A stretch of DNA of 64,000 bases from positions 38,932-102,931 of the forward strand of contig JBAZLL010000002.1 in assembly GCA_041650255.1 (NCBI GenBank), read 5' to 3'. How positions within the stretch are numbered: the stretch's first letter is position 1; every line of letters starts with the position of its first letter. The position numbers were made by a program, and so were the translations under genes. Under the pieces are notes generated by a model. It worked only from the letters and a program-made list of their open reading frames with translations, was not told where the DNA came from and searched no databases. The DNA comes from Candidatus Micrarchaeia archaeon (lineage in GTDB: Archaea > Micrarchaeota > Micrarchaeia > Anstonellales > Anstonellaceae). Below, piece after piece: positions 1,821-48,386 of the stretch.

Positions 1821-2999
1821 TCATACCCCGAATGCATGCAAAATTGACGGGCCGATAAGGCTTCCCATAACATGGGTTCGCGACACTCTCCAAACAAGCG
1901 GTAAATATCCGATTGCAAACGCGGTTGCAAGCACCACCAACCCAAGAATTCCGTCCGAGAAAAACGTCATCACGATAAGATATGCCCCCAAAATTTTCGC
2001 AATAAGGTCCATGTCTATCTGTCCAATCTTTCTTCCCATCGGGCCGGCAAGCCTTGCCAAAAGAAACGCGCCCAACGCGGCGGAAAACAAAAATGCACCC
2101 GCAAACGAGGGCCAGCTTTGCACATTAATATCCGCCATTCCCTGTGCCATCGCAATCGTGCCAACCCGCGCAATTTTAATTGAGGCGGCGGATGCAATTG
2201 CAAAAACCGTATGGCTTGCCTCAATCGCCGCTACATGCGCAAGAAAGTTTCGCGCGGAATCCATCTTAAAAAACATCGAAGTGAACACGGCAATTTGTGC
2301 CGGAGTGGAAATTCCCGGAATCAAATCCGCAAGCGCTCCAAGCAAAACTCCTGCAAAAACATACGGCATATATGAAAGGGAATAATCCTGTTTTTCATTT
2401 TTGATAATTTTCGGCTTTGCCAAATTTCCGGACAAAAGCGCGGGCATTGTGAAAAAACCGACAAAGAGCGCAAAGAGCGGCTCATGCATTGGCATATCTA
2501 AAACCATTTTCCCAAGAATAGCGGCAAGCAAAAAAACCACTCCTGCTTTGAAAATTTTCTCCCTTCCAATCTCATGCGCAAGCAACGCGGCGGCCGCAAT
2601 GAGTAAAATATATCCGATATATGGCTCCACCACAGAAAAAATTGACGGCAAAATCGGAATAATAAACGGAATTGCCAAAATGCTTAGAATGCTTGCGACA
2701 ACTACCGAAACCGCAACAACCACTGCCGCTTCTTCGCCCCTCCCAAGTGAAAACATCCTCTGCCCCGGCAAAAGCGCAATTTGTGTCTGTCCTTCGGGCA
2801 CGCCCAAAAATATTGACGGCAAAAACGCAAGGGCGCAATGCACTCCTGCAATAATTATGAGCGCATACGCAATCTCAACATTTTGCCCGAATATTTGTAT
2901 AATCACCGCGCCGATGCTGTTTGGGTGCAATCCCGGCAAAAGCCCGGAAAGAACGCCGAGCACAATCGCCCCGATTAAAAGAAGAAAAGGCAACTGCAT
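1821..2999 (-). CDS. Tripartite tricarboxylate transporter TctA-family permease (DUF112)
   Basis: Polytopic; GLLPGLHPN, FLPSIFLGVPE, ALLPGQRM motifs of archaeal TctA-like proteins. Confidence 0.85.
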   Translation of the reverse strand: MQLPFLLLIGAIVLGVLSGLLPGLHPNSIGAVIIQIFGQNVEIAYALIIIAGVHCALAFLPSIFLGVPEGQTQIALLPGQRMFSLGRGEEAAVVVAVSVVVASILSILAIPFIIPILPSIFSVVEPYIGYILLIAAAALLAHEIGREKIFKAGVVFLLAAILGKMVLDMPMHEPLFALFVGFFTMPALLSGNLAKPKIIKNEKQDYSLSYMPYVFAGVLLGALADLIPGISTPAQIAVFTSMFFKMDSARNFLAHVAAIEASHTVFAIASAASIKIARVGTIAMAQGMADINVQSWPSFAGAFLFSAALGAFLLARLAGPMGRKIGQIDMDLIAKILGAYLIVMTFFSDGILGLVVLATAFAIGYLPLVWRVSRTHVMGSLIGPSILHAFGV

Positions 3000-3003
3000 T
3001 CGC

Positions 3004-3387
3004 TCATCTCATCACGAATATTTTTTGTGCCCTTACAAACCGATTTGAATACATCGCAGAAATTGTGCCGCTAATATTCACTTCGCCGCGGGAATAAATC
3101 GGGTCCTGCGCGCTCCAATCACCTACAATCTCATCCGGCGCATAAACGCTTATACACTCTTCATCAAGCGAGCAAACACTAAGCGTATTGCCTCCGCTTT
3201 TCGCGGTTATTTTTTGCACAGTTCCGACAAACTGCACTTTTTGCCCGTCGTCCATCACATTAATTCTTGCTATTTCAACGGTTGCAAAGCCCGATTGTGC
3301 CGGCCAGAAATAAAGTATCAATATTCCAAGAAGTGCGACCGCAAGCGCAATATATTGCAAGCGAGACGAATCGCATGCGATTTCCAT
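3004..3387 (-). CDS. Membrane-anchored OB-fold protein
   Basis: N-terminal TM helix then OB-like pattern (GQKVQFVGTV...GEVNISGTI); 4 bp from the tctA-like gene. Confidence 0.6.
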   Translation of the reverse strand: MEIACDSSRLQYIALAVALLGILILYFWPAQSGFATVEIARINVMDDGQKVQFVGTVQKITAKSGGNTLSVCSLDEECISVYAPDEIVGDWSAQDPIYSRGEVNISGTISAMYSNRFVRAQKIFVMR

Positions 3388-39063: not shown

Positions 39064-39151
39064 GAAAAATTTAACGAGTTTATATATTTTAAATCAACCC
39101 TTCATAAAGAAAGAAAGATAAAGCATGAAATCCTTAAGTTATACTATTCAT

Positions 39152-39314
39152 GCCAACGTCGCATAACCTGGTAGTGCGTCAGTCTCGAAAGGCTTTTCTT
39201 TTCTCTCGCCAGAGAAAAGAAAACCCTGGAAAAGAAAAGAGAGGGATGAGCCTTCCTTTTTTCCGAGATAACTGATCCCTTACGGGATTGTAGGTTCAAA
39301 TCCTGCCGTTGGCG
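39152..39314 (+). tRNA. tRNA-Ser(CGA) with 80-nt intron (39190-39269) at 37/38
   Basis: Acceptor GCCAACG/CGTTGGC, anticodon arm TCAGT-CT-CGA-A...A-ACTGA, long variable arm, GGTTCAAATCC, G73; BHB with CTCG/CGAG helix and AAA/ATA bulges. Confidence 0.93.
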
Positions 39315-39399
39315 TTATATTTTCGTCTTTTGCCGCATTTTGGTTCGCCTTCTACAAAATGTTTATATGTTTTATCTCTTGAAGTGTTTCGGTGGTAAT

Positions 39400-42610: not shown

Positions 42611-42716
42611 AACGCCCCTGTAGCTCCCCCTTTTTCTTTCTTAGAAAGAAAGAAAAAGGTAGGTTTCCAAAAAGAAAGAATACTAATGAAACTATATTCC
42701 AACGCCCCTGTAGCTC
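42611..42716 (+). repeat. 16-bp direct repeat of the tRNA-Thr 5' end flanking a 74-bp palindrome/mirror insert
   Basis: AACGCCCCTGTAGCTC at 42611 and 42701; 14-bp hairpin 42629-42659; purine mirror 42646-57 / 42669-80. Confidence 0.9.
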
Positions 42717-42775
42717 AGCGGTAGAGTGCTTGTTTCGTAAACAAGATGTCGCGGGTTCAAATCCCGTCGGGGGCT
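42704..42775 (+). tRNA. tRNA-Thr(CGT)
   Basis: GCCCCTG/CGGGGGC acceptor, CTTGT-TT-CGT-AA-ACAAG, GGTTCAAATCCC, U73. Confidence 0.95.
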
Positions 42776-46542: not shown

Positions 46543-47370
46543 TTATTCATATACAAACGGAGGTCGCGCATCCCAAATTTCAATCTCTTTTTTCTTTGCC
46601 ATCTCAAGAAATATTCTGTGTATATTGCTACCGTATTGCATTGCTTTTTTCTGTCGCTCAACCGCAATTTTTGGCACGCAAAGCAATTTTGCAATTTCGC
46701 GTAAAAGGGGTTTTTTCATCTCTATCTTTCCAATCCTTTTTTTTGCCGGAATCAAAAAAACGGCTTCAATGAGCTCCTTATCCATAAACGGAGTTTGCAC
46801 TTTTAATCCGACAAAATCCGCGACCGCGCCTGCCCGTTTTATATCCCTTTTTGGCAGGCTGGAAATTTCCTCACGCAAAAGTTTGTCCAAATCCACTCCA
46901 TTTGCAAATGCATCATAATATTTGTGATAGCCGACAAAAAGCTCTTCGGCGCCGGAGCCAAAAAGAACTTGTTTATCTCCAAGTGAATGTGCTTTTTTAC
47001 AAACCTCATAAATCGCGCACATAAGCTCAATGTCTGTCAAGGTTCCGGGCATCAGCTCCCACATTTTTTTATAATCCTTCAAAAGAGCCGCCTTATCCAC
47101 AAGTATGATATGCAACTTTATTTGTGTCTCTTTTGTTTCATTTTGTACTTGCAGTTCTTTTGCCGCCGCTTTGGCAGCCTCAACATCCGGGCTTCCTTCA
47201 AGTCCGACTGTAATCAAATCCACGTCGCATTTTTGCATCGCGATTTTTGCAATTGTGGTGGAATCCAACCCGCCTGAAAAAGCAATCGCGATTTTTTTCT
47301 CATTCTGCAAATTTTTCAAAACAGAATTTTGCAAAATCGGAGCAAGTTTTTTCGCATCGGAAATATTCAT
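46543..47370 (-). CDS. Asparagine synthase C-terminal-domain protein (no glutaminase domain)
   Basis: AFSGGLDS PP-loop, GSGAEELFVGY, TPFMD, KKAMQYGS. Confidence 0.87.
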   Translation of the reverse strand: MNISDAKKLAPILQNSVLKNLQNEKKIAIAFSGGLDSTTIAKIAMQKCDVDLITVGLEGSPDVEAAKAAAKELQVQNETKETQIKLHIILVDKAALLKDYKKMWELMPGTLTDIELMCAIYEVCKKAHSLGDKQVLFGSGAEELFVGYHKYYDAFANGVDLDKLLREEISSLPKRDIKRAGAVADFVGLKVQTPFMDKELIEAVFLIPAKKRIGKIEMKKPLLREIAKLLCVPKIAVERQKKAMQYGSNIHRIFLEMAKKKEIEIWDARPPFVYE

Positions 47371-48017
47371 TTTTTCATCCTGCCAAAAATGCTTTCAATT
47401 ACCGGATTAATCAGCTGGTTTAACATCGGAATAATGTAAAACGACATAACTATTCCAATAATCCCTCCGGTCAGCAGGCGCATGGTGTTCGTGCTTTCCC
47501 AAAAGCCCAAGAATTGCCCGCTCCCGTCAATCGCAATCGGTACCATCGCAAGCACAAGCCATATCGGGTGCGGCCAATTTTGTTCATTCGCTTTTTTTAC
47601 GAGCGGATAAATAATCCCGCCGATTAGCATTGACAAATATATTCCAAAGTCTCGGGCGCATACCGGAAATTTATATCCAATATCCGAAGCAGTGCATTTT
47701 GCAGAACCAGCCCCCACTCCGTCGTTCAGGCATGATTTTGAAAAAATAATCTCTGTTTTTTGCCCTGTGTTCGCTCCGTCGCAATCTCTAACCAAAAATC
47801 CTGCCTCATAATAGCACAATGACCTTGTATCAAGCTGGTGGCATGTAAAGCTCCATGCAAAATAAGCCGAAGAAGCAAGATTTTCCTGTTCATTTGCCAC
47901 AAGCAGTGGGGGCATGAAAATAAGTGCATTTATCGCAAGCATGCAAATTAGGTAAATAATCCAGCCATACGGAATTTTTGTTCCATATATTTTCCGTCCA
48001 GTTTCCATAAATCGCAC
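47367..48017 (-). CDS. DUF2085-like membrane protein
   Basis: FTCHQL..RS, PVCARDFGIY, PIAIDG, RLLTG. Confidence 0.85.
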   Translation of the reverse strand: MRFMETGRKIYGTKIPYGWIIYLICMLAINALIFMPPLLVANEQENLASSAYFAWSFTCHQLDTRSLCYYEAGFLVRDCDGANTGQKTEIIFSKSCLNDGVGAGSAKCTASDIGYKFPVCARDFGIYLSMLIGGIIYPLVKKANEQNWPHPIWLVLAMVPIAIDGSGQFLGFWESTNTMRLLTGGIIGIVMSFYIIPMLNQLINPVIESIFGRMKK

Positions 48018-48039
48018 TGTTATTTCTTTTTTTTTGGAA

Positions 48040-48165
48040 CGGACCCGGTGAGATTTGAACTCACGACCTTTGTCTTGCTCCGTTTTTAATTAACTTTTTT
48101 CTATTTTCTAAAAAGAAAAAAGTCATTAGGAGGACACTGCTCTATCCAAGCTGAGCTACGGGCCC
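48040..48165 (-). tRNA. tRNA-Arg(CCT) with 51-nt intron (48076-48126) at 37/38
   Basis: GGGCCCG/CGGGTCC acceptor, GTGTC-CT-CCT-A...A-GACAA, GAGTTCAAATCTC; BHB with CTCC/GGAG helix. Confidence 0.93.
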
Positions 48166-48386
48166 GTGATAATAATATTGCAAATAGGGTATTTATATTC
48201 AAAACGCTTTCTTTTTGGGGTTACCCATATCCTCAACCGCCGCGCGGTTGGGGAGCTTGAAGCCGAAGGCTTCATGAGACCTTTTTCTTTTGAAAAGAAA
48301 AAGGGCTGGGGAGCTGAGCTACGGGCCCGTGATAATAATATTGCAAATAGGGTATTTATATTCAAAACGCTTTCTTTTTGGGGTTA
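48149..48386 (-). repeat. 75-bp perfect direct repeat (promoter + first 17 nt of tRNA-Arg) flanking an 88-bp triple-hairpin insert
   Basis: 48149-48223 identical to 48312-48386. Confidence 0.95.

Follow-up and report, generated by a model that had tools for sequence, protein, structure and literature searches.

A tRNA-Arg(CCT) gene end duplicated around a small hairpin cassette in a Micrarchaeota genome, a possible footprint of polar, target-duplicating insertion

How does the 5' end of a tRNA gene, promoter included, come to stand on both sides of a small hairpin cassette? The locus that raises this question lies in the 64,000-nt stretch of DNA analysed here (the window), which belongs to a metagenome-assembled genome (MAG) of the Micrarchaeota (1.05 Mb, 22 contigs, 89% complete). 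A repeat search revealed a direct repeat of 75 nt with an offset of 163 nt, whose copies enclose a gap of 88 nt, and the whole repeat-cassette-repeat structure spans 238 bp (Table 1). The original prediction of a perfect 75-bp repeat, carrying the promoter and tRNA nt 1-17 around a hairpin cassette, was thereby confirmed. Read in tRNA sense, the region has the order X-[a p s]-E5-[a p s]-tRNA nt 18-76, where s denotes nt 1-17, p the 40 nt of the promoter and E5 the 88-nt cassette; the 18-nt motif a (TAACCCCAAAAAGAAAGC) is the usual 3' tail of the inserted element family described below. The promoter sequence of the repeat occurred at two sites genome-wide, both in the repeat copies, and both cassette junctions were unique sequences. 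AT-rich, TATA-like stretches were also present upstream of the other tRNAs of the genome. The flanking genes are ordinary chromosomal ones and encode a DUF2085 membrane protein, EF-2, GrpE and DnaK; the EF-2 gene has its matches in MAGs of Candidatus Micrarchaeota / Anstonellaceae.

Table 1. Features of the tRNA-Arg(CCT) locus and of related repeat-flanked loci. Plain numbers are window positions; positions with a C prefix refer to contigs of the same genome.
Feature	Position	Strand	Flanking repeat	Basis or remark
Intact tRNA-Arg(CCT) with canonical intron	48040..48165	-		Rfam RF00005, 45 bits; ARAGORN with introns
tRNA-Arg(CCT) exon 1	48165-48129	-		
tRNA-Arg(CCT) intron, 51 nt	~48128-48078	-		
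tRNA-Arg(CCT) exon 2	48077-48040	-		
Proximal repeat copy	48149..48223	-		runs on into tRNA body; 100% identity
Proximal copy, tail motif a (tRNA sense)	48223-48206			
Proximal copy, promoter, 40 nt	48205-48166			
Proximal copy, tRNA nt 1-17	48165-48149			
Distal repeat copy	48312..48386	-		ends in dead 17-nt tRNA 5' stub
Distal copy, tail motif a (tRNA sense)	48386-48369			
Distal copy, promoter copy	48368-48329			
Distal copy, stub	48328-48312			
TATA box TATAAATA, tRNA sense, -25 to -32	48190..48197; duplicate 48353-48360	-		read from sequence
88-nt cassette: element 5' part and nested hairpin modules	48224..48311	-		CCCCAGCCC immediately after stub nt 17
Pyrimidine/purine palindrome AGACCTTTTTCTTTT G AAAAGAAAAAGGGCT, element family core	48277..48307	.		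inverted repeat; family alignment A1
Hairpin TGAAGCC-GAA-GGCTTCA	48258..48274	.		fold; cUUCGg loop in tRNA sense
GC hairpin, CAACC...GGTTG stem	48230..48254	.		fold; common to contig C2:20239-20262
tRNA-Thr(CGT) instance: element copy and 20-nt spacer	42611..42716	+	16 nt	AAC and tRNA nt 1-13; R1 48.9 bits
tRNA-Leu(CAG) locus	C3:6899-7052		49 nt	3' end of tRNA and trailer
tRNA-Gly(TCC) locus	C14:9156-9290		17 nt	5' end of tRNA
Protein gene, 5' end	C2:1374-1642		105 nt	promoter and first 14 nt of coding sequence
Protein gene, 3' end	C2:20190-20371		~45 nt	last codons, stop and terminator
Recombinase upstream region	C5:61416-61563		~47 nt	sequence upstream of recombinase gene

An intact tRNA-Arg(CCT) follows 146 nt downstream of the stub, and its presence rules out that the stub is the 5' half gene of a split tRNA. 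A simple tandem duplication was ruled out as well, the order being A-B-A with a single B. In its default mode ARAGORN missed the gene, which was found in intron mode; the canonical intron itself contains a pyrimidine/purine palindrome resembling that of the cassette. Elsewhere in the genome, intron mode produced a 'tRNA-Pyl(CTA)' at C8:43019-43177, which is really a tRNA-Arg(TCT) with a long intron, and a 'tRNA-Stop(TTA)' at C3:56827-56941. In two genomes of the same genus (L011 in G002 and L013 in G001) the tRNA-Arg(CCT) gene also adjoins the DUF2085 gene, inverted relative to the window (47367-48165), so the tRNA gene was flipped in place during divergence of the genus. The contig of a third same-genus genome ends inside the tRNA-Arg(CCT) intron, with the tRNA still beside the DUF2085 gene. 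The orthologous locus offered no alignable empty site in the three same-genus genomes compared. In the empty-site comparison, a 23-mer from the promoter found no match in metagenome or genome contigs, and the exact element-subfamily pattern none in genome or viral contigs.

As DNA, the cassette forms three hairpins (-27.5 kcal/mol, z = -5.9; none of 200 shuffles folded as well), in agreement with the three hairpins originally described, although the stems are somewhat longer than first written. The palindrome and the A-rich tail together form a mirror repeat. Covariance model R1 matched the minus strand at 48206-48312 with 53.5 bits (E 2.9e-10), and a copy related to the window cassette was found on contig C2 (20218-20325). 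The CCTTCGG loop type of the central hairpin recurs in the 3' cassette of tRNA-Gly(GCC), and the CAACC...GGTTG stem type in several tRNA 3' cassettes. The cassette is no unique object but a composite of modules from genome-wide families, which are also found in tRNA introns, and similar pyrimidine/purine palindromes occur in tRNA trailers. A transcript from the upstream promoter copy, if made, would probably meet a T5 run ~10 nt past the stub and end at ~30-35 nt, judging from the sequence. The RNA of stub plus cassette (48206-48328, minus strand) is predicted to adopt a closed multi-arm fold (-46 kcal/mol, z = -3.9, which may be chance), in which tRNA nt 1-9 pair with the cassette 3' end (UAUGGGU..CCC) and the hairpin arms lie inside.

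AGCTCCCC, which had been noted at the cassette junction, inside the cassette and at the tRNA-Thr junction, is indeed present at all three places. As a recognition motif it was discarded, since 14 occurrences against 10-17 expected in the genome represent no enrichment; the sequence arises because the tRNA D-stem AGCT(C) meets the CCCC 5' end of the element.

Alignment A1 of the copies in this genome yielded a basic element of ~56 nt, CCCCAGCCC-TTTTTCTTT-loop-AAAGAAAAAGG-TCTAGGGG-TAA-CCCCAAAAAGAAA. Its C-rich 5' end is followed by a pyrimidine/purine hairpin and a GGGG-TTA-CCCC turn, and the A-rich tail (CCCCAAAAAGAAA) behind them is a mirror image of the purine arm. The window copy is this basic element with a 47-nt insert between GGTCT and the tail, and the insert consists of two nested GC hairpins, one of the cUUCGg type and one with the CAACC...GGTTG stem, the latter repeated on contig C2. 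When the cassette was searched against the whole genome, related elements were found, each flanked by direct repeats of different, local sequence; element copies are dispersed over at least 10 loci in this genome. The repeated sequences include tRNA ends and the ends of protein genes (Table 1), and the repeat pair at C2:20190 contains one coding difference, which is synonymous. Some cassettes are sets of GC hairpins only, such as the 62-nt three-hairpin cassette at C4:117483 (-30.6 kcal/mol), which is flanked by 26-nt repeats comprising a gene's last eight codons. The tRNA-Thr junction of the original prediction proved to be a related structure, with the tRNA-Thr(CGT) gene (42704-42775) directly behind it, and many comparable junctions were found at other tRNAs, the test that the prediction had set itself.

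The family also extends into tRNA genes of this genome, as R1 matched the canonical introns of tRNA-Gly(CCC) and tRNA-Ser, and many tRNA genes are followed by a pyrimidine/purine palindrome in the terminator position. The 80-nt canonical intron of tRNA-Ser(CGA) at 39151-39315 of the window probably carries the same pyrimidine/purine hairpin and mirror tract. One 3' cassette family accompanied three of the five tRNAs with the T-arm CCGGGTTCAAATCCCGG and none of the 39 other tRNAs, and this tie to a single T-arm sequence indicates target recognition. tRNA-Val(GAC) (C8:2624-3050) is preceded by a tandem array with two extra units of 121-123 nt, each consisting of a 21-nt 5' stub, a hairpin cassette and a promoter; a related cassette follows nt 21 of tRNA-Val(CAC) on C4, the same position as in tRNA-Val(GAC).

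For each of the 44 tRNAs called by ARAGORN, we determined whether the first or last 25 nt recurred within 450 nt. The 5' end (13-21 nt) was repeated upstream at 7 tRNAs and the 3' end downstream at 11, the latter mostly from A58/A59 of the T-loop to the discriminator base, while the reverse arrangements (3' end upstream, 5' end downstream) were found at none of the 44. The duplication of a 5' end, originally set apart from the usual 3'-half duplication by tRNA-targeting integrases, is therefore a recurrent feature: besides these 7 tRNAs it was seen in two other genera, and in another archaeon a 5' tRNA fragment left by a mobile element is on record (PMC3293823). Exact direct repeats of at least 14 nt with a spacing of 25-350 nt numbered 102 in the genome and 1 in the shuffled genome, so that chance is excluded; roughly half of the 102 belong to the CRISPR array, and about a third of the remainder touch tRNA ends. 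This array (C3:26028-27700) has a 37-nt repeat, GTTGCACTCTCTGAATTAACGACGTGAACGATGCAAC, in roughly 23 or more copies, and a Cas1 gene lies nearby (C3:21914-22762).

The insertions are also polar. By inspection of the ten informative loci, i.e., those with one repeat copy joined to the gene body, the C-rich 5' end of the element always abutted the truncated stub and the A-rich tail faced the intact copy. Eight of these loci are in this genome (tRNA-Arg, two tRNA-Thr, tRNA-Gly, tRNA-Leu, two protein genes and the recombinase upstream region) and two, both tRNA-Arg(TCT), are in other genera; a further tRNA-Thr(GGT) locus in a relative agreed. At two independent loci (the window and C2:20190-20371) the repeat starts with the tail motif of the element itself, as would be expected had the tail paired with a similar sequence at the target; such pairing would give the window order X-a-p-s-E5-a-p-s without an extra step. 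A promoter stretch of 20-53 nt, unique in sequence, separates the element from the intact tRNA at three of the 5' stub loci here and at two in other genera, and this stretch shows no relation to the sequence upstream of the respective stub. These promoter-like spacers are each unique in the genome and gave no source there; they weigh against a simple target duplication, which does not predict such a stretch.

Among 41 related genomes, 21 had R1 matches and copy numbers ranged from 0 to 57, a patchiness that partly reflects the narrow reach of a model built from this genome's own copies. In the genome with 57 copies (G039), large composite T-loop introns have the element as their first module (...GGTTCAAA|CCCATATCCCTTTTT...). 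Among the relatives it was also present in canonical introns of tRNA-Arg, Leu and Cys, in T-loop introns, including that of tRNA-Ser(GCT) of another genus, and directly 3' of tRNA ends. Many tRNAs of G039 (L132-L151) carry introns of 100-400 nt at the T-loop position 58/59, built of repeated modules, and every one examined ends in a T-arm-like CGGTTCGGTTGA(A/G)A; ARAGORN found none of these tRNAs.

The layout stub-element-promoter-tRNA was found at tRNA-Arg(TCT) of two other genera, and it is shared by the orthologous tRNA-Thr(CGT) of a same-genus genome (L156). A protein-gene 5' stub in a genome of the genus (L154; G003:C87, ~2450-3300) comprises the first 13 codons, MVELTNDDLKALS, and differs from the intact start at five positions, all synonymous; a tRNA stub in another genome shows compensatory T-stem changes compared with the intact copy. 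Such stub/intact pairs have the appearance of two functional alleles that came together, and less that of a copy made in place. Their divergence and the unrelated promoters fit either a gene-end copy imported along with the element or an allelic replacement, at a later time, of the functional copy as far as the element.

None of the candidate enzymes searched for (reverse transcriptase RVT_1, Y1 transposase, tyrosine recombinase, Cas1) tracks the copy number of the element. RVT_1 was absent from this genome (G000) and from G039, G033 and G003, and no Y1 transposase was found. The only tyrosine recombinase of this genome is Xer-like and located away from the insert; G039, in spite of its 57 copies, has none, nor have G003, G022 and G031 (the search covered the tyrosine type). 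Around half of the 41 related Micrarchaeota genomes had no tyrosine recombinase, including G039, G003, G022, G031, G032 and G040. Such genomes would lack archaeal XerA, which elsewhere resolves chromosome dimers. Cas1 is present in this genome beside the 37-nt-repeat array and absent from G039, G003, G033 and G023, all of which have many copies. Integration by Cas1 (CRISPR or casposon type) was rejected, because a fixed target duplication would be expected and the repeats here measure 10-105 nt, and because Cas1 is missing in copy-rich genomes.

With moderate confidence, we take the 238-bp structure to be a footprint, left when a small element, non-coding and non-autonomous, inserted with a fixed polarity at the 5' edge of tRNA-Arg(CCT) and duplicated its target. 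One breakpoint would lie inside the gene, in the D-loop after nt 17, and the other outside it, where a copy of the tail motif already stood 58 nt upstream. Fill-in would then copy the interval between the breakpoints to both sides of the insert, with the element 5' end joined to the in-gene breakpoint and the A-rich tail joined to, and here merged with, the outside one. Selection would keep solely those insertions whose duplication rebuilds the whole gene and its promoter. The outcome would be one intact tRNA and a dead promoter with a 17-nt stub, any transcript of which would hit the T-run of the element. Anatomy and family membership are well supported; the data further show that the stubs occur exclusively in the restoring configuration, that the insertions are polar, and that high-copy genomes lack reverse transcriptase, integrase and Cas1. 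We infer the chemistry of a staggered break, tail annealing and fill-in, which would be carried out by some other enzyme or by a general repair activity.

A circle or a decayed integrative element could produce the same picture. In this scenario a small molecule carrying the gene end (promoter and nt 1-17) recombined with the resident tRNA in a Campbell-type integration, site-specifically or by homology; the cassette would be the remnant of the element and the repeat the shared attachment core. Indeed, a 163-nt circle integrating via the 75-nt homology would yield the exact structure, and the 3' stub boundaries (T-loop 58/59 to the tRNA 3' end) are textbook for tRNA-targeting integrases. The pairing of one cassette family with one T-arm sequence, the different promoters beside the intact tRNA and upstream of the stub at several loci, and the resemblance of stub and intact copy in relatives to diverged functional alleles point in the same direction. 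There is also a precedent in the 5' tRNA-Thr fragment that a recombinase-bearing element left 1.8 kb upstream (PMC3293823). However, the 'elements' measure merely 56-110 nt and carry no gene, and the many different tRNAs and protein-gene ends would each need a target-specific copy. The genome has a single Xer-like recombinase, the 57-copy genome and several others with copies have no tyrosine recombinase, and ordinary homologous recombination would need longer identities than these 13-24 nt. We consider this origin possible, though rather unlikely. A former D-loop intron at position 17/18 of tRNA-Arg, with the old exon 1 as the stub, appears still less probable. It would have been by-passed when unequal recombination between the intron's tail motif and an identical motif upstream of the promoter of an intron-less allele placed a fresh promoter and nt 1-17 behind the intron; a crossover within the 18-nt tail motif gives the window structure exactly. 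The stub ends where an exon would end, the element lies in tRNA sense at all 5' stub loci, the family does form introns, and 3' stubs begin at 58/59, the T-loop intron site of relatives, including tRNA-Ser(GCT) of another genus. Nevertheless, the window locus holds no in-register bulge-helix-bulge motif, repeat-flanked structures also occur at protein-gene ends, and no D-loop (17/18) intron of this family was seen among the loci examined. Nor can the copy at the tRNA-Leu 3' locus be an intron remnant, since it runs antisense to the tRNA.

The structure might also be kept for a function, as a source of a tRNA-headed small RNA or as a terminator or insulator between the divergent neighbour gene and the tRNA, which would be compatible with the other readings. 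The palindromes in the terminator position behind many tRNA genes and the cUUCGg-type loops in tRNA sense would suit such a role, as would the predicted closed multi-arm RNA with its paired nt 1-9 (-46 kcal/mol, z = -3.9) and the retention of the tRNA-Thr(CGT) stub layout in a same-genus genome. Yet the length and content of the stub vary by locus, protein-gene stubs have no plausible RNA role, and the stub in the same-genus genome retains an older acceptor sequence instead of tracking the gene, and we give selection for a function only a small chance. Least probable of all, and by our estimate very improbable, is a decayed tandem tRNA duplicate or an artefact of short-read MAG assembly. Tandem stub arrays do exist at tRNA-Val(GAC), and a 75-nt exact repeat can make a loop in the assembly graph. 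Random deletion in tandem tRNA genes should, however, also leave 3' stubs upstream or 5' stubs downstream, and the configuration counts (18 restoring stubs, 0 reverse) rule such decay out. Against an artefact stand the unique sequences of both cassette junctions and the ~18 further loci with the same architecture on many contigs and in other genomes, whose repeats of 10-24 nt are too short to mislead an assembler.

The preferred insertion of a small element can be compared with known systems. As in integrations of the pNOB8/SSV type, a partial copy of a tRNA end lies beside the intact tRNA with inserted DNA between, and direct repeats that include part of the tRNA (75 nt, with nt 1-17) stand at both ends of the insert; 5' fragments are documented there too, such as the tRNA-Thr fragment left by a recombinase-bearing integrative element in Caldiarchaeum subterraneum (PMC3293823). 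Those inserts are kilobases long and encode a recombinase, whereas here they measure 56-110 nt (88 nt in the window) without a gene, also in genomes without a tyrosine recombinase, and no matching integrase accompanies the window insert, the only recombinase of the tyrosine type searched being the Xer-like one elsewhere. MITEs and REP/BIME palindromic repeats are likewise small, non-coding, hairpin-forming, multi-copy and intergenic with nested insertions, and the dispersal over at least 10 loci fits them. Unlike these, the family has neither terminal inverted repeats (ends CCCCAG... and ...CCCCAAAAAGAAA) nor a short fixed target duplication (flanking repeats of 17-105 nt), and no related transposase was found (Y1 type searched). 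SINE/LINE target-primed insertion shares the variable, sometimes long target duplication, the A-rich 3' tail that merges with the target and the fixed polarity of the insert. In contrast to it, neither this genome nor its copy-richest relatives have a reverse transcriptase, and the 'tRNA head' here is a copy of the neighbouring gene, outside the element. Intrastrand mirror-repeat (triplex-type) motifs are matched by the pyrimidine/purine hairpin and the third tract mirroring its purine arm, which is read from alignment A1 and from copies in other genomes; the tracts appear to co-change from copy to copy, and the formation of a triplex here is putative, and this class is silent on how an element moves.

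With tRNA introns, the sequence family itself is shared. The window copy itself lies upstream of an intact tRNA. No in-register bulge-helix-bulge motif joining stub to tRNA was found, in a strict scan that also misses the relaxed canonical motif of this tRNA; by hand, the only in-register self-complementary 4-mers for splicing the stub to the tRNA were GGCC and AGCU, both without flanking helices. For the transposing tRNA introns of the Thermoproteales (Fujishima et al. 2010), the account given in PMC4090602 infers spread at the DNA level and gives no mechanism. Like the family described here, these are short non-coding sequences, nearly identical to each other, that occupy different tRNA genes and different positions (the T-loop among them) in a single lineage (PMC4090602). 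The family here differs in that it also occurs outside genes, between long duplications of gene ends and beside protein genes, and in that the window copy is no intron and has no splice motif. In the full-text literature outside subscription journals, we found no published account of hairpin cassettes flanked by repeats beside the tRNA genes of DPANN archaea. The locus belongs to an apparently undescribed set of small hairpin modules, spread across the lineage, which move back and forth between tRNA introns and gene ends and leave duplicated gene ends behind.

The route by which archaeal tRNA introns reach new genes and positions is acknowledged to be an open question, and a 2026 census of Asgard archaea gives no general route (10.64898/2026.10.13.758758). 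Tentatively, the modules could be a DNA-level vehicle that spreads such introns, polar, tail-annealed and target-primed, without reverse transcriptase or integrase, and aimed at the single-stranded loops of tRNA genes; we regard this extension as possible, though rather unlikely. Its targets would be the D-loop (13-21), the anticodon loop (37/38) and the T-loop (58/59). A short stagger would then give an intron and a stagger beyond the gene end a stub-flanked cassette, which could later turn into an intron once the proximal copy is lost.

For the annotation of DPANN genomes the stubs and hairpin cassettes matter in that they break assemblies and hide tRNA genes, as in the default-mode miss of tRNA-Arg(CCT) and the tRNA-Arg(TCT) mislabelled as tRNA-Pyl in intron mode. 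For the biology of tRNA genes, one family serves here as an intron, stands as a module next to tRNA ends and, in the window, has left what looks like a fresh insertion whose 75-nt duplication is perfect. These three states supply junctions, a polarity rule and target positions with which the insertion chemistry can be tested, and they may help to explain how tRNA introns move.
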